Shown here: in pieces, positions 25,967 to 50,365 of the stretch
Layout: each line of letters starts with the position of its first letter
Numbering within the stretch: position 1 is the stretch's first letter
Source: Octopus vulgaris
Taxonomy: Eukaryota
DNA: 64,000 nt
Assembly (NCBI GenBank): GCA_951406725.2
Contig: OX597839.1
Location: 26,784,001-26,848,000 of the forward strand
Direction of reading: 5' to 3'
The notes under the pieces: model-generated
Seen by the model: the letters and a program-made list of their open reading frames with translations, nothing else
The model's database searches: none
What the model was told of the DNA's origin: nothing
Program-made: the position numbers and the translations under genes

Positions 25967-26005
<39 letters not shown>

Positions 26006-26278
26006 GTTATCGCCATACTAATATGGCATTCTTATAAAAATAAGAATAAAGCTGTCCGCTTATTAGCTCCATGAGGCCATCGCCTTAAGTTAGCTATTTG
26101 ATACACAAACTGTATCCATATAACCTTCGAACAAGGGAGGTTTTAGCGTAGTCAGACCAGTAGGTGTCGCTTCTGACAATCTCTGTTCGAAGGTTTTATT
26201 TACCTAGTTTCAGTGGAATACATCCACTTGTTTTCAATATATATATATATACCTTGTATATATATATGTATATATACA

Positions 26279-26376: not shown

Positions 26377-26890
<514 letters not shown>

Positions 26891-30180: not shown

Positions 30181-32886
30181 TGTTGTTGGCATCCTTTTTG
30201 TCTCGGGAGACAATGGAGTTGCGCATAAAATAATCTAGTCCGGCTTTTACATTTCATGTCCTAATACATCTCTTGCTGTGGCTGTGTAGTCCTATCCGGG
30301 ACAAACACTCCCTCTGGCAGGTGCCGTAAATGTAGCGAAGACTTTGCCTGACTGGTTGTAATGTCATAGTTTCTTGTTGACGTCTTTTCTTGTCTTTCCA
30401 TTTCTCCTTTCTCACTATGTCACTCCTTTGTGTTCCCTCTTTTACGGTACGTCGCCAATCTCCACGGTTGCTGGCAACTGCTTCCCAGTTGGTAATATTG
30501 ATGTTGCAGGCATTCATGTCCCTTTTGCAAACATCCTTGTATCGTAAGAACGGTCTTCCCACAGACCTAGTGCCCCTAGCAAGCTCTCCGTTGAGTATGT
30601 CCTTGGGGATTCTGCCATCTTCCATACGGCTAACATGTCCAAGCCATCTCATACGTCTTTGTGTGAAGAGTGCAAACATGCTTGGTATTCCTGCTTGCTT
30701 GAGGACATCTTTGTTAGGGACATGATTCTGCCATTTGATGCGATGGATTTTCCGGAGACAGCGCAGTGAAAGATATTTAGGCGACGTATGGCGTCGTATG
30801 GCGTGTGTATGGCGTCAAAGTCATACAGTAGAGTGCTAAGTACACATGCCTGGTAAATCTTCATTTTTGTGGTCTTGGTCAGCTTATTGTTGTCCCATGC
30901 GCGTTTGGTGAGTTGGGCCATCACAGCAGCTGCCTTGCCAATGCGTATATTGAGCTCAGCATCAAGGGATAGGTTGTAGGTGACGGTAGAGCCAAGATAG
31001 GTAAACTTCTCCACCTCCTATACTCTGTGGTCTCCAATATGTATGTTTGGGATGTCCGATGTAGCCTGACCCATGATGTTGGTCTTCTTGAGGCTGATAA
31101 CTAAGCCAAAGTTGCCAAATGCTTGCTCAAAACAGTTGCTGAGCCTTCGTAGGGCTTCTTCTGTGTGTGATACCAGAGCGGCATCATCAGCAAATAGCAT
31201 CTCCTTGATCAGGACGCTTCTGAGATTTTGGTCTTGGCACGCAGACGCGAGAGATTGAACAGTTTCCCATCACTTCTACAGTGCAGAAACACTCCATCAT
31301 CTGATGTCTCAAAGGCATGTGACAGCAGCAGCGAGAAGAAGATGCCAAATAATGTAGGAGCAAGGACACAACCTTGCTCTACCCCATTTTTTATTTGGAA
31401 GGCGGCTGATGTTGAACCATTGTGCTGTATGGTGCCTTGCATATTAGCATGGAATGATTTGATGATCCTCAGCAGCTTTGGTGGACATCCGATTTTTTGG
31501 AGCAGGATGAAGAGGCCTTTTCTACTTACCAAGTCAAAGCCCTTTGTCAGATCAATGAAGGCCATATATAATGGCATGTTCTGCTCTCTGGACTTCTGAA
31601 GTTGGCGTATGGAGAATATCATGTCAATAGTTGATCTGCTTCTTCTAAAGCCACACTGCGATTCTGGATAAATTCGAGAAGCAATTAGTTGCAGCCTGGA
31701 CAGGATAATGCGAGCAGAGGCCTTTCCAACTGTGCTTAGAAGAGATATTCCACGGTAATTGTTACAATCATCACGGTCACTTTTATTTTTGTAAAGCGTA
31801 ATGATGTTAGCATCCCGCATATTCTGAGGGACTGTACCATCTTACCAGCACTGACACAGAAGCTCATGAATGTGCCGAAGCAGGATGGTGTTTTTGCCGG
31901 TTTTGATGATCTCTAAGGGGATGCCGTCTTTTCCCGGAGCCTTGTTACTTGCTAGGGAGTCAATAGATTTGGTGAGCTCTGCTATAGATGGCAGACTGTC
32001 AAGTTCACACATGACTGGCAAGATCTTGACACCCTCGATTGCAGCCTCAGCTACCTGGTCTCTCGTGAGTAGAGATCCTGGTAGTACTCCATCCATCTAT
32101 CCATTTGCTTGCTTTGGTCCTTGATGAGATCTCCAGTAGTTGATTTCAGAGGGGCTGAGGTGGTTGCGGATGGACCGAGGGCCTTCTTCAAACCGGCATA
32201 CATCCCACGGGTGTCGCCACTGTCAGCAGCTGACTGGATACTCTGACAGATTTCCTGTCAATACCCATTTGCACAGCGTCTGGCAGTCAGTTGGGTTTTA
32301 TTTCTTGCCTTTCTGAGTTCTTCGAGTGACTTTGTAGAAGAATCACTCTTGTATTGCATCAGAGCTGTACGCTTTGCTTCGATAACTGTTTCCAGCTCTG
32401 AGAGCCCAGCACTGAACAAAATCTGGGTTTTACCTTTCTCTCATTCCGAAAGTATCTATTGATGTGGTATACAAAGCTTCCCTGATATAATTCCACCTAC
32501 TTTCAGCAGAGGAGGTTGGGCAGCTAATGAGGGCAACCTTGATAGAAACAGCAAAACATTGTCGCAGTGTAGGGTCCGAGGTTCTGGCAGTGTTAATGCG
32601 TGGTTGGCTCATTTTCTTGGAGTGATGGACTTTTTAGGCAGAATCCTCACCCTTCTTATTAGTGAATGATCTGTGTCACAATCCGCGCTACGGGTCAGTT
32701 GAACAGAATTCAGAAAGGATCTTCGTGTAATGGTGAGATCCAACTGATGCCAGTGGTGAGATCTTGGATGTCTCCAAGATGCCTTGTGGGATGTCTTGTT
32801 GGGAAAGAATGTGTTGGTGATGCACAGGTTATGGTATGTGCAAAATTCAAGTAGTCTCTGGCCATTGTCATTCATGTTGCCAATAC
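30181..32886 (-). mobile_element. RTE-clade LINE, 5'-truncated and frameshifted (AP endonuclease C-part plus reverse transcriptase)
   Basis: NDNGQRLLEFC, WRHPRSHHWHQLD, DTDH, NYRGISLLS, PESQCGFR, FIDLTKGFD, QGCVLAPTLF, LFADD, FTYLGS, RWLGHV, GRP; 3' end GGATGCCAACAACA. Confidence 0.95.
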
Positions 32887-32954
32887 TAAAACACATACAC
32901 TTACATATATACATATATATACGATTGATTTGTTTCAGTTCCTGTCCACGAAAT

Positions 32955-34755: not shown

Positions 34756-36888
34756 TCAGGTCATCCCATAAGTTCTGTCTGAATTTTGGATAAAGAATAC
34801 AAGTGATCAAATGTTATATTTAATCATCAATGTACTTTCCCTAATTATCTATGACTTACTTCCATCTATTTACAAGCTTTTTAATCCCATCAACGTAAAA
34901 CTCTTTTGGTTTCAAAGCGAAGAACTCTGAAATGTCAGGTTCGACCTCCCCCTGGCTTGCGAAAGTTGTATCCCCCCTACTAATTCTGTAAACTATGAAA
35001 CAAATGGTATCCTGAAGGAGTAAGGTCGGGAGAATAAGTTGGATGAAGAAATTTTTCGATCTTCTGTGATGTGATCTTTGCAATGTGGGGTTGCGCATTG
35101 TCCTGATGAAACATCACTCGTTTTCGACTCACTAAAGCGGCTCTTTTTTCCTTCAAAGCTTGGTTCAAACGCTCTAATTGCTGACAGTAGACTTGAGCAT
35201 TGATTGTTGCATTAGGTGGTAACAATATAAAGTGAATTACACCTTTGCAATCGCACCAGATAGAGAGTAGAACCTTTTTCCCATGAAGTTCCCTTCTCGG
35301 TTGTGGTTGAGAATTTTCCCTTTTACCAAGCCACTGTTTACGACGTCTAGCATTTCGATAGAAAATCCATTTTTCATCACAAGTCTATCGAAAAAGGGTG
35401 AAATGAGTTTGCGAGAATGGAGAGAAGAGCAGATGCCAACTCGGGATTTGCGGTTGCTTTCGGACAATACATAAGGCACCTATTTTCCAAGTTTAGGAAT
35501 CTTTCCACGTTGTTGAAGATGACGATGAACTGTTGCATGGTTTGAAGTAAGCTTTATTGCCAATTCTTCAACTGATAATGACGGATTTTCTTCAAGTAAT
35601 GCCTCAAGGAGCTTGTCAAACTCAACTGGACATCCTGTTCGATATTCATCTTCAATTTTGCAGAGGATCTCCTGCAAGTTCTTTCATTCGAGCACTTTGC
35701 CATAAACTGAGTGTATGTTTCGAGTCACTTCGGCAGCAGAGTTACCTTTATTGTACTCATAAAGAATTATATGTGCCTTAAATGCTCCTTGGATACTTCC
35801 ATGTTGAAAGGGTTTTAATCAAAGCAATTTTAGGGTGTCCACGAAGTCTGGGTTTATGGAATAAAATCATAACATAAACAAATAAATATAAGAAATAATA
35901 ATTTTCCTTTTTTACTTTTGTTTAAATTAAATAAAAAAAATACTTTACTTTTCTAAATTTATTTGTTATTTTTTCTACAGATGATCGAAAGATTGGCTCT
36001 GTCTAAAGAAGAAAGAATCCCAGATCGAATGATGAATCTGTCTAAAGAAGAAAGAATCGAGTTAGTATTATTAAGTGGACGAGAGGGATGGTCTTATCGC
36101 AAAATTGCGGAAGAATTTAATCTTCCACACCCTTGTAGGCAACCTATTTATTTTACTACCGTCAGGAAATTGCTCAAGAAATTTAAAGAAACAGGCAGTG
36201 TTTCGGATAAACCCCGTTCCGGGCGACCAAAGACTTCAGATGAAACTAAAGAGGCTGTCGAGGCTAAAGTTTCTGCTAGCTAGCCCCCAAAAATCACTTC
36301 GTCGGACATCTACGGTGTTAGGTGTTCCAAAACCAACCATCCACAAAATGCTGGTTGAGGAAAAGTTTCATCGATACAACCTACAGATATTGCATCACTT
36401 AAATGAAGACGATCCTGATAGACGAATGTAGACGTGCGAATGGTTTTCAGATAAATTGGATGAAAATATCAATTTTACGAAAAACTTTGTGTTGTTCATT
36501 GACAAAGCTACGTTTTATGTAAATGGTGAGGTCAACAGACAGAATCTTCTATACTGGTCTCGAGGTAATCCACATTGGATGGATCTATCCAAACAGCAAG
36601 ACAGCAAAAAGGTGAAAATATTATTTATTGAAAATATTTATTTGAAAATATTATTTATTAACATTATAATTAAATAAAATTGTTTTGTTTTAAAAGTATG
36701 TGTTAATCCCCATGTACGCAGACTTTGTGTACACCGTCTATTATTTTGTAAAACAATATTGAATTAGTTTAAACGTACACAAATGCATAAAAATAATTTT
36801 TAATTGAATTAGACATTTGCAAATACTATTAAATTTCATTCAAATCTTAAAAAAGGTAAAATTGGATAGAACTGACTGGATGACTTGA
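34756..36888 (-). mobile_element. Mariner transposon, transposase pseudogene (ATG at 35802), host of a nested element
   Basis: TIR TCAGGTCATCC..AGTTCT / AGAACT..GGATGACTTGA-TA; motifs MEVSKEHLRH, FHQDNAQPH, YSPDLTPSGYHLF. Confidence 0.88.
35831..36738 (+). mobile_element. Tc1/mariner-superfamily element (rosa/DD41D-like N-terminal half) nested in the mariner 5' UTR
   Basis: Imperfect TIR GGGTGTCCACGAAGTCTG..ATGG / CCATG..CAGACTTTGTGTACACC; motifs KFKETGSV.D.PRSGRP, LNEDDPDRR, F.DKATF.VNGEVNRQN..YWS..NPHW; subfamily is inference. Confidence 0.82.
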
Positions 36889-37628: not shown

Positions 37629-37728
37629 NNNNNNNNNNNNNNNNNNNNNNNNNNNNNNNNNNNNNNNNNNNNNNNNNNNNNNNNNNNNNNNNNNNNNNNN
37701 NNNNNNNNNNNNNNNNNNNNNNNNNNNN
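37629..37728. other. Assembly gap (100 N)
   Basis: Direct. Confidence 1.
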
Positions 37729-38564
37729 ATAGAAGTCAGGTGGTAGTAGCCACTTCCATTAACACGCAAACAGTGAGCTGTGTTCCGCAGGGCACTGTTT
37801 TGGGACCACTACTGTTCATAATGGCCCTCTCAGACATGCCCTCAGCCACGCAGAGAGCCACGATCACAAGTTATGCAGATGATACAAAAGTTTCACAGGC
37901 AATACAGAACCCTGTGGACACTAAACGCCTGCAATGTGAGCTGGACAAAATATACAAGTTGGCTGAAAAGAATAGCATGCAGTTCAATGCTGAAAAGTTT
38001 CAAGCTTTATACTATCAGCATGCAAAACTAAATGCAATACCCAATGAATACACTGGACCCGGAGGAATAGCAATCCCAGAGGCACAATAAGTGCGTGACC
38101 TGGGTATTTACATGAGTGATGACGCAACCTTTCGTGTACATGTTGCTAAATTTGTCCCAGACTTTGGCATTGAGAGTCACACAAATGCCAGAACCGATTC
38201 CACTGCGTAGTACCAAGGACTCCAAATTTGCCATCAAGATGTAGGACAAGATATTGTAATAGCCTGGGCTTCAGAGGCCCACAGCTCTTCAATATCCTCC
38301 CGAAGAAACTGAGGGACCTGCATGGTGTAGATGCGGATGTCTTTAAAGTAGGACTGGATCTCTTCCTGTCAGGTGTCCCGGATGAACCAACTTCACGGCA
38401 GGAGGTGCAGATGAGGGCAGCTGCATCGAACTCTCTCATGCATCAGATGGCGTTTGCTAAGAAGCATCCGTGAGGTAAAATCGTGTAGCAAACCAAATGG
38501 CGGTGCCCCAGCATAGCCACAGCTCATTAGCTGAAACTGGAAAATCAAAATCAAAATCAAAATC
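37729..38564 (+). mobile_element. CR1/L2-group LINE 3' fragment (RT pseudogene, internal deletion) with (AAAATC)4 tail
   Basis: VPQGTVLGPLLF, YADDTK, MQFNAEK, VRDLG, LFNILP, FK..LD.FL; premature TAA at 38088-38090. Confidence 0.9.
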
Positions 38565-38836: not shown

Positions 38837-38897
<61 letters not shown>

Positions 38898-38988
38898 GAA
38901 ATATTAAAATTACGAATTCTCTATAATAGAGATTGCAGCAGCGTTTACTGGAAATTAATTGTTATCGCAATATTAATATGGCATTCTA

Positions 38989-41574
38989 ATGCGCAGTCAC
39001 ACGTTCGCGCATGCGCAGTGACACTGTCTCGCATGCGCAGATACATGTTCGCGCATGCGCAGTAACACGTTCGCGCATGTCCATTCACACTTTCGCGCAT
39101 GGGCAGTCACACGTTCGTGCATGCGCTGTGACACTGTCGCGCATGCGCAGATACATGTTCGCGCATGCACAGTCACATGTTTGCGCATGCGCAGTCACAC
39201 ATTCGCGCATGCGCAATCCCACATTCGCGCATGCGCATTCACACTTTCGCGCATGCGCAGTCACTCGTTGGTGCACGCGCAATCATACGTTGGCGCATGC
39301 GCAATCTTACGTTCACGCATGCGCAGTCACACGTTCGCGCATGCGCATTCACACTTTCGCGCATGCGCATTCACACTTTCGCGCATGCGCAGTCAAACTT
39401 TCGCGCATGCGCAATCCCACGTTGGGGCATGCGCTATCTTACGTTCGCGCATGCGCAGTCACACGTTCGCGCATGCGCATTCACACTTTCGCGCATTCGC
39501 AGTCACACGTTGGGGCATGCGCAGTCACAGGTTGGCGCATGCGCAATCATACGTTCGCGCATGCGCAGTGACACGTTCGCGCATGCGCAGTCACACTTTC
39601 GCGCATGCGCATTCACACTTTCGCGCATGCGCAGCCACACGTTCACGCATGCTCTATTCCACGTTGGCGCATGCGTAATCTTACGTTCGCGCATGCGCAG
39701 TCACACGTTCGCGCATGCGCAGTCACACTTTCGCGCATGCGCAGTCACACGTTCGCGCATGCGCAGTCACCCGTTCGCGCATGCGCAATCCCGCTTACGC
39801 GATGCGCATTCACACTTTCGCGCATGCGCAGTCACTCGTTGGCCATACTTTGGCGCATGCGCAGTCCTACGTTCGCGCATGCGCAGTCACACGTTCGCGC
39901 ATGCGCATTCACACTTTCGCGCTTGCGCAGTCACACTTTCGCGCATGCGCAATCACACATTCGTGCATGCGCATTCACACTTTCGCGCATGCGCAATCAC
40001 ACTTTCGCGCATGCGCAGTGACACTGTCGCGCATGCGCAATCTCACGTTCGCGCATGCGCAGTAGCACGTTGGCGCATGCGTATTCACACTTTCGCGCAT
40101 ACGCAGTCACACGTTCGCGCGTGCGCAATCACACATTCGCGCATGCGCATTCACACTTTCGCGCATGCGCATTCACAAGTTGGCGCATGCGCAATCTTAC
40201 GTTCGCGCATGCGCAGTCACACGTTCGCGCATGCGCAGTCACACTTTTGCGCATGCGCAGTCACACTTTTGCGCATGCGCAGTCACACTTTTGCTCATGC
40301 GCAGTCACACTTTCGCGCATGCGCATTCACACTTTCGCGCATGCGCATTCACACTTTCGCGCATGCGCAGCCACACGTTGGCGCATGCGCAGTCACACGT
40401 TACGCATGCGCAATCTTACGTTCGCGCATGCGCAGTCACACGTTCGCGCATGAGCTGTCACACGTTCGCGCATGCGCATTTACAGTTTTGTGCATGCGCA
40501 TTTACACTTTCGCGCATGCGCAGTCTCACTTTCGCGCATGCGCAGTCACACATACACGCATGTGCATTCACACTTTCGCGCATGCGCAGTCACACGTTGA
40601 CGCACGCGCAGTCACACGTTCGCGCATGCGCAATCACACATACGCGCATGCGCAGACACATGTTCACTGATGCGCAGTCACACTTTCGGGCATGCGCAGT
40701 CACACGTTCGCGCATGCGCAGTTACATGCTCGCGCATGCGCATTCACACTTTCGCGCATGCGCAATCTTACGTTCGCGCATGCGCAGTCTCACGTTCGCG
40801 CATGCGCACGCACACTTTTGCGCATGCGTTGTCACACTTTCGCGCATGCGCACTCACACTTTCGCGCATGCGCGGTCACACGTTCGATCATGCGCATTCA
40901 CACATTCGCGCATGCGCATTCACACTTTCGCGCATGCGCAGTCACAAGTTGACGCATGCGCAGACACATGTTCGCGCATGCGCAGTCACACGTTCGTGCA
41001 TGCGCAGCCACACTTTCGCGCATGCGCAATCTTATGTTCGCGCATGCGCAGTCACACGTTCGCGCATGCGCATTCACACTTTTGCGCATGCGCAGTCACA
41101 CTGTCGGGCATGCTCAGTCACACGCTGGCTCATGTGCAGTAACACGTTCGTGCATGCGCATTCACACTTTCGCGCATGCGCAGTCACACTTTCGCGCATG
41201 CGCAGTCACACTTTCGCGCTGCGCAATCTTACGTTCGCACATACGCAGTCACACGTTCGCGCATGCGGACGCACACTTTTGCGCATGCGCAGTCACACTT
41301 TAGGCATACGCAGTCACACATTCGCGCATGCGCAGTAACACGTTCGCGCATGCCGTTTCACACTTTCGCGCATGCGCATTCACACGTTCGTGCATGTTCA
41401 TTCACATACTCGCGCATGCGCATTCAAACATTCGCGCATGCGCAGTCACACGTTCGCGCATGCGCACGCACACGTTCGCGCATGCGCACGCACACGTTCG
41501 CGCATGCGCTTTCACACTTTCGCAGTTACACGTTCGCCCATGCGCATGTACACATTCGCGCATGCGCAGTCACA
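38989..41574. repeat. 22-bp CpG-rich satellite, consensus GCGCATGCGCAGTCACAC(G/T)TTC, ~117 units
   Basis: Direct; 2586 bp divided by 22; produces the 22-aa periodic MRSHTFAHAQSHVRACAVTRSR ORFs in all three plus-strand frames. Confidence 0.97.
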
Positions 41575-42397
41575 GAATTAATGGGGTCCATTCGTAAAAA
41601 AACAAACGAAACAAAGACAGTTGAGCATCACAATTTTCTACCCCTAAAAATGTCTCCAAAATATCGCCCTGGGTTCTAAATGCGAAGTTAAGCCTCCCAT
41701 AAGCTAATTTTGTCCTTGGCACTCCAACCATCGGCTAATTTGTATCCAGATAATCCGAGCATGACGACTCCTTCAAAATAATTTTTTGTACCAAAGGTAC
41801 AGGACCTGAAATTTGGGAGGAGGGAATGAGTCGATTACATCGACCCCCTCCCCAGTATGCAGCTGGTACGTATCTTGTCGACCCCGAAAGGATGAAAGGC
41901 AAAGTCGACCTCGGAAGAAGAAGGAGGAGGAGGAGGAGAAGAAGAAGAAGGAGGAGGAGGAGGAGAAGAAGAAGAAGAGGAGGAAGAAGTGGAAGTGGAA
42001 GAGGTAGAAGAGGAAGAGGTAGAATAGGAAGAGGTAGAAGAGGAAGAGGTAGAAGAGGAAGAGGTAGAAGAGGAAGAGGTAGAAGAGGAAGAGGAAGAGG
42101 TAGAAGAGGAAGAGGAAGATGTAGAAGAGGAAGAGGAAGAAGAGGAAGAAGAAAAAGAGGAAGAGGGAGAAGAGGAAGATGAGGAAGAGGAAGAAGTGGA
42201 AGAGGAAGATGAGGAAGAGGAAGGAGAGGAAGAAGAAGAAGACAGTAGTTTCTTTCATCTAAGAGTGATATCTACTTGTCAAATTTATTGGGTCAATATA
42301 TATTTTGTCGATTGAAATTTCAGGAAAAAAAACCCAAATAACAAAGGGCGAAATTTCATCTAGCGCCTGCGCACTAGCGATTCTGCCAGCTCTTGTT

Positions 42398-44084: not shown

Positions 44085-44108
44085 AGGACCCATTTTTTTT
44101 ATATATAA

Positions 44109-44512
44109 CTAGCAGTATCGCCCGGCGTTGCTCGGGTTTGTAAGGGAAATAACTATAAAGCATTTTTAGAGAGTTATAGCCAAAAAATAGCAAAAAAATG
44201 CATTAAAAATGGAAAACAAATGATGGTAAATTTTTTTTAAAAATCGTTGACTCATCGTAGAAATTTTTAGAGAGTTACTTCCCTTATATAATAGCGAAAA
44301 AAATGCATTAAAATGGAAAAAAATTATGGTAAATTTTTTTTTTAAATCGCAGACTCATCGTAGACGCGCGCTAATACCCAGAAGGGCTCGATATGAATCA
44401 CGACTATAAGATACCCGGTTTTTGTTAAACTGCACCGCAAAATGTGGGAGTAGTTAGGAATCTAAATCGAAGGGGACAGACACTCACACAACTACAGTTT
44501 TATATATAAAGA
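44109..44512 (-). mobile_element. Non-autonomous Helitron-like element
   Basis: Reverse complement of 26377-26774 with TC/CTAG ends and CCCGGCGTTGCTCGGG hairpin. Confidence 0.85.
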
Positions 44513-48402: not shown

Positions 48403-49533
48403 TTAGGTTTCAATTTCTTCGCTGTCTTCTTTTTCTTCTTTGTGACTGCATTTACAAAATGGGAACATATTCCAGAGCTCTTTCCAAAATTTTTGATCAC
48501 ACACGGCGTATATCGTCGGGTTCAGAGTGTAAAGTTGGTAGGAACGTAAGAACAGATTGTAGAGGACTTCACTAAGGGGCATTAAATTCCCAAGGTTACC
48601 CACAATCGTCCTGTATATCATGAGAATGTGATAGGGTATAAAACTGACGGAGAAGAAGGCAGTTGTAAAGAACAGCTTCATGGTGGTTCGGCGGAGTTTG
48701 TACAAATGGTGGCCGTTTCGTTTGTCGATTGTTGTCTTCCTGGTCGGGGTATTGTTGTGTCTGATGTTGTTGACGGTTGGGTCGCTCTTGCTTTTGCCTT
48801 TGGCCATCATCAGAGATATTTCGTTGGTGGCGAGGCAGTGGAAGCTGTTGCGACTGGCCATCAAGTAATTGGTGCCGAAAGGGGAGCTCTTCTTGTGCCG
48901 CCGGAGTTTCTGCCATATGAAGATGTAGAGCAAAGCCAACGGTATGAGAATTGCCACAAAGAGGATTAACAGAAATCCGTAGTAAATCTGCGGCAGTATT
49001 GATGATTTCATTGAATAATCCGACGAGCATTCACTCACGAGTATGTTCGATTCGATCTCGTAACTGTGCTGACCGTATATAAAATACACTGGTATTGAGA
49101 GTATCACGGCCACAACGGCCGAAATAATCGATATTTTAACAGCCATGCGATATTCGATTTTCGATTTCTGGGGTTTGCACACGCACAGGTAGCGATCGAT
49201 GGCTATGGACAGGAGAACGAACCCGGATGCAATGGCGGTCGCTGTGATTTGCAAACGTTGGAACTTACAGGTGGGCAAATAATAATAAGGGTACCTCATC
49301 TCGACTATCTCCATTGGTAGGGTAACACTGCAGCAGACCAGATCGTAGATACCCAGAAATAATATGAAACATGTCGTCGTTGTAGGTTTAATCAAACAAC
49401 CATAGACGTAGCATACTAGAGAGTTACCCAGGATCCCTAAAACCATCGTGACCCCGATATAAACGGATACCGGAATATACAAGATGGCCTTTTTGTTGTT
49501 CAGGTCCATAAATTCACTTTCTGAGATATTCAT
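48403..49533 (-). CDS. Intronless class-A (rhodopsin-like) GPCR, peptide-receptor-like, 376 aa
   Basis: ATG at 49533 (MNISES, N-glycosylation sequon); TM1 GILGN, TM2 LGIYDL, TM3 Cys and IAIDRY, ECL2 Cys, TM5 P...Y, long basic ICL3, TM6 SFIPY, TM7 NPTIY; intact ORF. Confidence 0.93.
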   Translation of the reverse strand: MNISESEFMDLNNKKAILYIPVSVYIGVTMVLGILGNSLVCYVYGCLIKPTTTTCFILFLGIYDLVCCSVTLPMEIVEMRYPYYYLPTCKFQRLQITATAIASGFVLLSIAIDRYLCVCKPQKSKIEYRMAVKISIISAVVAVILSIPVYFIYGQHSYEIESNILVSECSSDYSMKSSILPQIYYGFLLILFVAILIPLALLYIFIWQKLRRHKKSSPFGTNYLMASRNSFHCLATNEISLMMAKGKSKSDPTVNNIRHNNTPTRKTTIDKRNGHHLYKLRRTTMKLFFTTAFFSVSFIPYHILMIYRTIVGNLGNLMPLSEVLYNLFLRSYQLYTLNPTIYAVCDQKFWKELWNMFPFCKCSHKEEKEDSEEIET

Positions 49534-50365
49534 AATGACAGTTAATCGAAATATATACACACACGTAGGGTACTGTATATATATATATATATCTTTATTA
49601 TATATTTAACAGGGTATATATACGTATATATTTTACATATATTCAACAGGGTGCTACATATATATATATATGTATGTATGTATTCAACAGGGTACTATAT
49701 TCACTAAAAATTTGCTTATGGTACCCTAATAGAAGACGAAGACCAGTCAACTATAATGATATGATTGGCAGTTAATTGAGCTTTATGTAACTGAGGGAAG
49801 ACTTACAAAAGATAATTGGGGACAGCTTACCCTTGTAAAGGACAAACACCACTCAACTATATTGAAGCTCTCGGCAGAGACGCACCTCATAAAATTGAAG
49901 CAGAATTTGGTGAAGTCAGTGGGGGAGAGCTCAGCAAATGAGGGGGCAAAGTCCGCTCAGTTATAGAGATGCTAAGGGCAGAAACGCAACAAAATTGTGG
50001 AAGTGACGACCAGAGAAAACCAATGGCGGACACAGAGATTCTTCATGCGCTATCAAGAAACACATATCTTTGTTTAAACCCCGCTTGAAAATGAAATATA
50101 TATATAACAGTATATTGGATAAATATTATCCCTTAGTGGGTTGGATCTACAACCCCTAACTTTCTTTGTGTTATATATATATAAGTAGAAAGAATAGCCA
50201 AAACTTTTTGACTGCTATTTCTAAATTCGGTGTGTGGTGAGGCAAATCGTTGCTAAACCCTTAATTACTTAGTATTACTTAAACCTTCCTTGAATGGGGC
50301 TTTTACATGCCGAACTCTATACTTGGTGAAATTAATGATTATTTCTAAATTAATTAATTTCACCC

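Follow-up and report, generated by a model that had tools for sequence, protein, structure and literature searches.

A dispersed 22-bp minisatellite family in Octopus vulgaris whose intact NRF1-type units may have been preferentially amplified

The array of 22-bp units described here belongs to a minisatellite family that is dispersed through the genome of Octopus vulgaris. On balance, we judge it probable that units of this family with an intact GCGCATGCGC have been duplicated far more than broken ones, likely by way of bound NRF1, a reading drawn from the arrays' own sequences. Across representative arrays the site is kept at the amplification step; the copy in the window (the whole stretch of 64,000 nucleotides that was analysed) shows no such bias when taken alone. 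That copy is a solo, ageing member of the family with little recent amplification.

A sequence-only reading of the window had placed about 117 units of 22 bp at 38989..41574, carrying about 100 NRF1-type palindromes. Two programs bear this out: TRF reported 38989-41523 with period 22 and 115.9 copies, and wrap-around alignment resolved 118 whole units, with a partial unit at either end, reaching 41574. With one mismatch or fewer allowed there are 101 sites, among them 76 exact GCGCATGCGC and 70 YGCGCAYGCGCR, and the perfect 12-bp TGCGCATGCGCA occurs only 5 times. Most units retain the site, as had been stated (exact GCGCATGCGCA in 74 of 118), and the CpGs are indeed largely intact, with an observed/expected ratio of 1.72 in the array against 0.72 in the remaining window. 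The linker, described earlier as 11-12 nt and variable, is 11 nt long; in this copy most of its variation falls at positions 1, 8 and 11, and positions 6, 9 and 10 show no more change than the site. Most runs of alternating purine and pyrimidine, the feature said to favour Z-DNA, are 12 bp long. The recurring unit order that had been noticed is real, since an ATCTTA-type unit is followed by GTCACACGTTC in 7 of 8 cases (1.3 expected; matched by none of 10,000 shuffles), but a fixed multi-unit period does not survive correction over 15 lags (before correction, the best p was 0.011 at lag 8, with 0.02 at lag 11). Local order with no fixed period points to block duplications and not to a higher-order repeat. 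Sites are spaced 22 bp apart in 1,420 of 1,509 adjacent pairs family-wide, which would slightly exceed two 10.5-bp helical turns. We rejected the array as coding sequence, its frames being open in stretches yet broken and repetitive, and also as a copy of an array found elsewhere, since it shares at most 66 bp of exact sequence with 25 other arrays; a ATCTTACGTTC unit between intact sites is exclusive to the window array (2 matches).

Table 1. Features in the window, by position on the analysed stretch.
Feature	Position	Strand	Remarks
22-bp minisatellite array	38989..41574	+	118 whole units, consensus GTCACAC(G/T)TTCGCGCATGCGCA; exact GCGCATGCGC x76
Terminal ~96 nt of abundant ~364-bp repeat	38892..38990	-	strand presumably that of the hammerhead-like core
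Second fragment of ~364-bp repeat, internal fold-back	26000..26236	.	no array adjoining
Right flank	41575..41845	.	first ~55 bases single-copy
Solo Helitron-like copy without array	26377..26775	+	5' TC; 3' hairpin plus CTAG; flanked by A and T; of the family that adjoins the majority of the other arrays
Second solo Helitron-like copy without array	44108..44512	-	same Helitron-like family as 26377..26775
Single 400-residue open frame	48403-49605	-	rhodopsin-family GPCR (PF00001, E 4e-25)
Broken LINE reverse-transcriptase pieces and mariner-type transposase piece	37725-38545; 30254-32900; 34980-35384	+; -; -	

The array is flanked by a piece of the 364-bp repeat and by single-copy DNA, with no Helitron ends around it; the Helitron-like copies closest to it are those at 26377 and 44108. 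The left-flank piece is truncated at the array's first bases, beside a TA microsatellite ending at 38894. Judging from its sequence the repeat is likely a retrozyme: the full monomer bears a hammerhead-like core, found by pattern only, with 25 matches across 29 loci, and Rfam searches of three flank loci returned no match at gathering score, hammerhead included. The left flank, and it alone, resembles the metazoan non-LTR retrozymes as treated in PMC7229834 in its tandem monomer of ~364 bp and its type I hammerhead-like core; it departs from them in that the core is a pattern match with no Rfam counterpart and that the 22-bp array is separate from the element. The repeat is abundant (909 candidates, 40 of them scored; tandem period 364 bp), and its reference sequence includes the fold-back, which leaves its flank labels beyond about base 245 loose. 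No 22-bp array adjoins it at any of the 29 other loci fetched, and its end motif is followed by the array in 1 of 61 occurrences (30 loci). Being a separate tandem repeat, the left flank is rejected both as a terminal inverted repeat and as a signature of an element to which the array would belong; the upstream motif that had been seen again at 26006-26032 is present there but belongs to this unrelated repeat. On the right, the first 54 bases were covered only by the self match among 40 scored. Contigs bridge the right junction in 4 of 4 public runs with 1-4 differences and, with X1 (a possible source) set aside, in three runs from two studies under three organism labels, so the junction is not an assembly artefact. 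No RNA run was listed among the sequencing runs matched, rows with small shares being left out.

A genome-wide search for copies and their flanks places the window array among 47 loci on 18 sequences, which together hold 68.3 kb of array in a genome of 2.80 Gb. Unit runs of 0.1-4.7 kb and locus-specific variants mark the family as a dispersed minisatellite. The triple-site pattern has 1,000 matches in the genome, a full count, and its control has none; 992 of the matches fall inside the 47 loci. The 46 other loci were gathered through this pattern, through a pattern for the junction with 17 matches, and through a 500-base BLAST in which 40 of the 77 candidates were scored. The reciprocal search kept the linker constant and let the site vary; its 42 matches lie without exception within loci already fetched. 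The family holds 2,037 of the 5,571 perfect YGCGCATGCGCR 12-mers in the genome (37%), and the window has 70 of them. The reversed control of this 12-mer occurs 263 times, and about 3,500 of the perfect sites lie outside the arrays. When GCGCBTGCGC sites are added (9,597 genome-wide, 116 in family loci), the family's share is about 14%. The literature searched yielded no account of the family; the curated repeat library in the supplement of PMC13282606 may list it.

How the site is kept can be followed from the entry of changes into the arrays to their rise in copy number. Units with indels were dropped, leaving 2,844 gapless units of about 3,100, and each of 15 lineages, assigned by hand from the flanks, was represented by its largest array (1,743 units). 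One 1.4-kb array is found, collinear, at three loci, and here private changes hit the palindrome in 94 of 1,941 site-copies (4.8%) and the linker in 114 of 1,860 (6.1%), against about 1% in the flanks. Rare variants per position number 22.8 in the site and 17.4 in the linker over the 15 representatives. The picture differs among variants that have multiplied. Counted at thresholds of 8, 10, 15, 20 and 30% of an array, alleles inside the site are 13, 13, 2, 0 and 0 out of 30, and those elsewhere in the unit are 25, 22, 19, 14 and 10 out of 36; the p values are 0.046, 0.22, 5e-5, 5e-5 and 0.001, the second not significant. One-step derived types with one, two, or three or more copies number 137, 14 and 2 in the site against 196, 38 and 46 in the linker (p 1e-7); that is, 2 of 153 site types and 46 of 280 linker types reach three copies. 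The bias remains when positions 1, 2 and 8, whose variants are common to many loci, are left out (p 2e-6), and also among lineage-private types (102, 9 and 2 in the site against 123, 24 and 25 in the linker; p 1.4e-4), where both site exceptions with three or more copies sit at the outermost base and the multi-copy signal comes from six large arrays. In the window copy, private types comprise 6 site and 5 linker singletons and at most two linker doubles. The per-position profile thus reveals constraint on the site among amplified variants, but not among private changes, which fall on palindrome and linker almost equally, nor in the window copy alone. Linker positions 6, 9 and 10 and position 22 are rather constant too, and T at position 11, which is also a CpG transition, could have arisen only a few times. 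GC-biased conversion was ruled out as the cause, given that C-to-A/T changes spread freely in the linker.

The three collinear loci (L040, L045, L132) also allow a comparison of tempo. Private changes accrue about five times faster in their arrays (208 of 3,819) than in their flanks (37 of 3,294 site-copies); the fast change includes transversions and may be inflated by conversion between units.

Broken-site units rarely multiply, likely because predicted protein binding helps intact units get copied. In the mechanism we propose, dispersed arrays, mostly joined to a non-autonomous Helitron-like element and otherwise to SINE, RTE, CR1 or hammerhead pieces or short-unit arrays, would ride as passengers of Helitron copying and might serve as templated fill at strand-switch junctions, often at the palindrome. 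They change several times faster than their flanks, with site and linker mutated alike and only linker changes rising in copy number. Putative NRF1 dimers on intact units could keep these units open and make them the preferred donors for in-register duplication or conversion, and the site would then be retained by biased amplification, not by selection on each unit.

The factor itself is encoded by the octopus. Five matching pieces of an NRF1 gene lie on C4, and 55 residues of its DNA-binding region align to human NRF1 (8K3D, 8K4L), with positions R206, N242 and R244 kept. These residue numbers are those of PMC10810270, placed by the 36-residue spacing; in that account the three are base-reading residues and TGCGC half-sites are read, and its NRF1 consensus is matched by the GCGCATGCGC of the unit. 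The earlier assignment to the NRF1/Ewg/P3A2 site stands in so far as the unit matches the consensus, the factor is encoded, spreading variants avoid the site and 37% of the perfect 12-mers lie in the family; the near-even private changes and the unbiased window copy weigh on the other side.

The palindrome could instead act by mechanics alone, its self-complementary core slipping, folding back and re-annealing so that intact units seed duplications, with the NRF1 match incidental because dimer sites are palindromes; this is the strongest of the alternatives and a serious one, although we consider it less likely than not. A mechanical role of some kind is indicated by the loci that contain both orientations (10 of 47), by the close minus-to-plus switches, 5 of 9 of which sit exactly on the 12-bp palindrome, by the GCATG shared at junctions with SINE pieces, and by units predicted to pair mutually through the core. 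Moreover, published Kd values, although they give a Spearman correlation of -0.59 with variant frequency overall, do not predict it within transitions or within transversions (p 0.47 and 0.73). However, symmetric double changes that keep the palindrome are neither above chance (1 of 90 in the representatives with 4.3% expected; 5 of 161 over all loci with 4-5% expected) nor spreading, and palindrome-templated repair was ruled out on this count. The bases flanking intact sites also go against pairing, the non-pairing C..A being common (903), T..A following with 277, and C..G, which pairs equally well, numbering 11. That T..A rises and C..G does not is expected if TGCGC half-sites are read, as described in PMC10810270. 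Symmetry would also be unneeded for in-register duplication, and arrays stitched to the family carry other factor-like motifs. On these points binding by NRF1 remains the reading we prefer.

NRF1 is methylation-sensitive, and CpG transitions are compatible, as far as the arrays' base changes tell, with at most light germ-line methylation: they run at 3.5% against 1.7% for other C/G transitions in the three collinear arrays and at 2.5% against 2.1% in the representatives. In O. bimaculoides fewer than 10% of CpGs are methylated and most repeats are unmethylated, with transposons low and satellites relatively higher, according to PMC9476566, and given such low methylation the idea of an artificial CpG island adds little.

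As to their carriers, non-autonomous Helitron-like pieces adjoin 33 of the 47 loci in a tally from the flank annotation, and 14 loci, the window copy included, lie outside Helitrons. A 5' TC, a 3' hairpin, CTRR and AT insertion, a terminal anatomy that we take to be Helitron-type, were read directly in two array-carrying elements (L044, L050). The remaining loci adjoin RTE, SINE or CR1 pieces, hammerhead-repeat pieces, TA runs or other short-unit arrays. A mobile element carrying the minisatellite, as had been suggested, therefore fits the family and not the window copy. In the collinear trio the flanks are 0.9-4.1% apart and the arrays 6.6-9.9%, and two of the three arrays lie within a block that spans about 26 kb and contains a RepHel frame; at least one array has thus moved whole, in a larger duplicated block. 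A search for an autonomous RepHel partner sharing these ends (150 matches scored, 5 regions examined) showed that the two-array block begins with a different 5' end.

The RepHel element was seen at C4:153.58-153.606 Mb (L045, L154-L155), C4:29.91-29.95 Mb and C24:6.79-6.80 Mb. One copy has a 1,518-aa frame, a sharp common 5' boundary is found in 3 of 3 copies compared, and copies are 97.7% alike over 10 kb. Two of them run on into the block that bears the arrays, in the manner of a long 3' transduction.

Several family arrays are stitched to other tandem repeats, whose motif names, such as MEF2-like, we have assumed. A 13-bp MEF2-like array is joined directly to the 22-bp array at C18:9214-17328 (637 copies, with 419 occurrences of CTA(A/T)4TAG) and at L123:6197-7075 (69 copies), and another 13-bp array of 86 to 383 copies is joined to it at L135, L138 and L139. 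At L131 (C13:50.69 Mb) the 22-bp arrays are interleaved with an A/T-rich minisatellite in which TTCN3GAA occurs 19 times against 2.3 in shuffles. At C30:1.548-1.562 Mb, C30:9.091-9.104 Mb and C18:1-9200, 22-bp arrays and a SINE-derived tandem repeat of 152 bp form higher-order trains that end in large fold-backs, and at L124-L127 (C31) a 48-bp satellite, with 96-99% identity over 4 kb, begins 3 bases from the array.

Could the host itself maintain the arrays, the window copy included, because they serve as enhancer blocks for NRF1 or titrate it like a sponge? The concentration of over two thousand perfect sites in 68 kb, the junction common to runs under three organism labels and the precedents in PMC6927752 and PMC11526998, as far as these sources bear on it, would speak for such selection, but we consider it improbable: site changes accumulate freely within copies, the flanks are other repeats, copy size ranges from 0.1 to 4.7 kb, and the family's share of sites drops once GCGCBTGCGC is counted. 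Apart from the GPCR frame, whose 3' end points toward the array from 7 kb away, no host gene was seen in the window, and no promoter was found near the window array. Least credible of all, and very improbable, is an absence of any constraint, with linker variants as a few old founder-array alleles and the constant site as an artefact of a site-based search; the variants shared over many loci at positions 1, 2 and 8, the 21 loci first found by their intact site and the non-significant 10% threshold (13/30 vs 22/36) would allow it, but the bias persists in lineage-private types and includes positions 6, 9 and 10, the site-free search gave no sister family with an altered site, and loci found by BLAST and by link sequence behave alike.

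The family invites comparison with other systems. PRDM9-bound hypervariable minisatellites likewise tie a protein motif in the unit to array turnover; PRDM9 binding erodes its sites, whereas the octopus site is kept. Helitron-acquired heat shock elements account for almost two-thirds of the genome's sites in Caenorhabditis, with binding and gene activation shown, as PMC6927752 describes, and the octopus arrays resemble them in their dense tandem sites for one conserved factor, their spread by Helitrons and their large share of sites (37% here). They differ in that the octopus sites are known from sequence and 14 of 47 loci lie outside Helitrons. Human Satellite 3 as presented in PMC11526998 is similar in that tandem units spell factor motifs, with factor gathering proposed; it is megabase-scale in a few blocks, and the octopus family has one dominant motif in 68 kb, scattered as 47 short, mobile and fast-changing pieces. 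Helitron minisatellites turned PATCs, in the account of bioRxiv 10.64898/2026.08.08.743475, are also Helitron-borne, change in a biased way and have a period close to some multiple of the helical repeat; there the bias is mutational and produces A/T phasing, which is no protein motif, whereas in the octopus changes are even and the bias lies in which units multiply.

It is an open question, usually argued from centromeres, whether repeats can evolve under the guidance of a bound protein when the host gains nothing. The present family is small and nearly fully counted, and it offers a clean signature, an even input of changes and uneven amplification, at the site of a well-studied factor with a solved structure, which makes the question accessible to direct test. 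New here are the census of the family, its share of sites and the test of amplification applied to an NRF1 unit, together with the MEF2-like and TTCN3GAA-rich arrays stitched to it. As a tentative extension, possible though not favoured, the family might be a binding-driven selfish satellite, in which putative NRF1 occupancy would pick the units that are copied; with more than a third of the perfect sites in 68 kb, it could act as a variable sink or a mobile opener of chromatin, and might represent NRF1 within a wider group of stitched octopus satellites, each shaped by a different factor. If NRF1 does not bind, palindrome mechanics would have produced the look of a regulatory motif, one by which motif scans are misled. 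If it does, differences in array size could shift the free pool of a housekeeping regulator.
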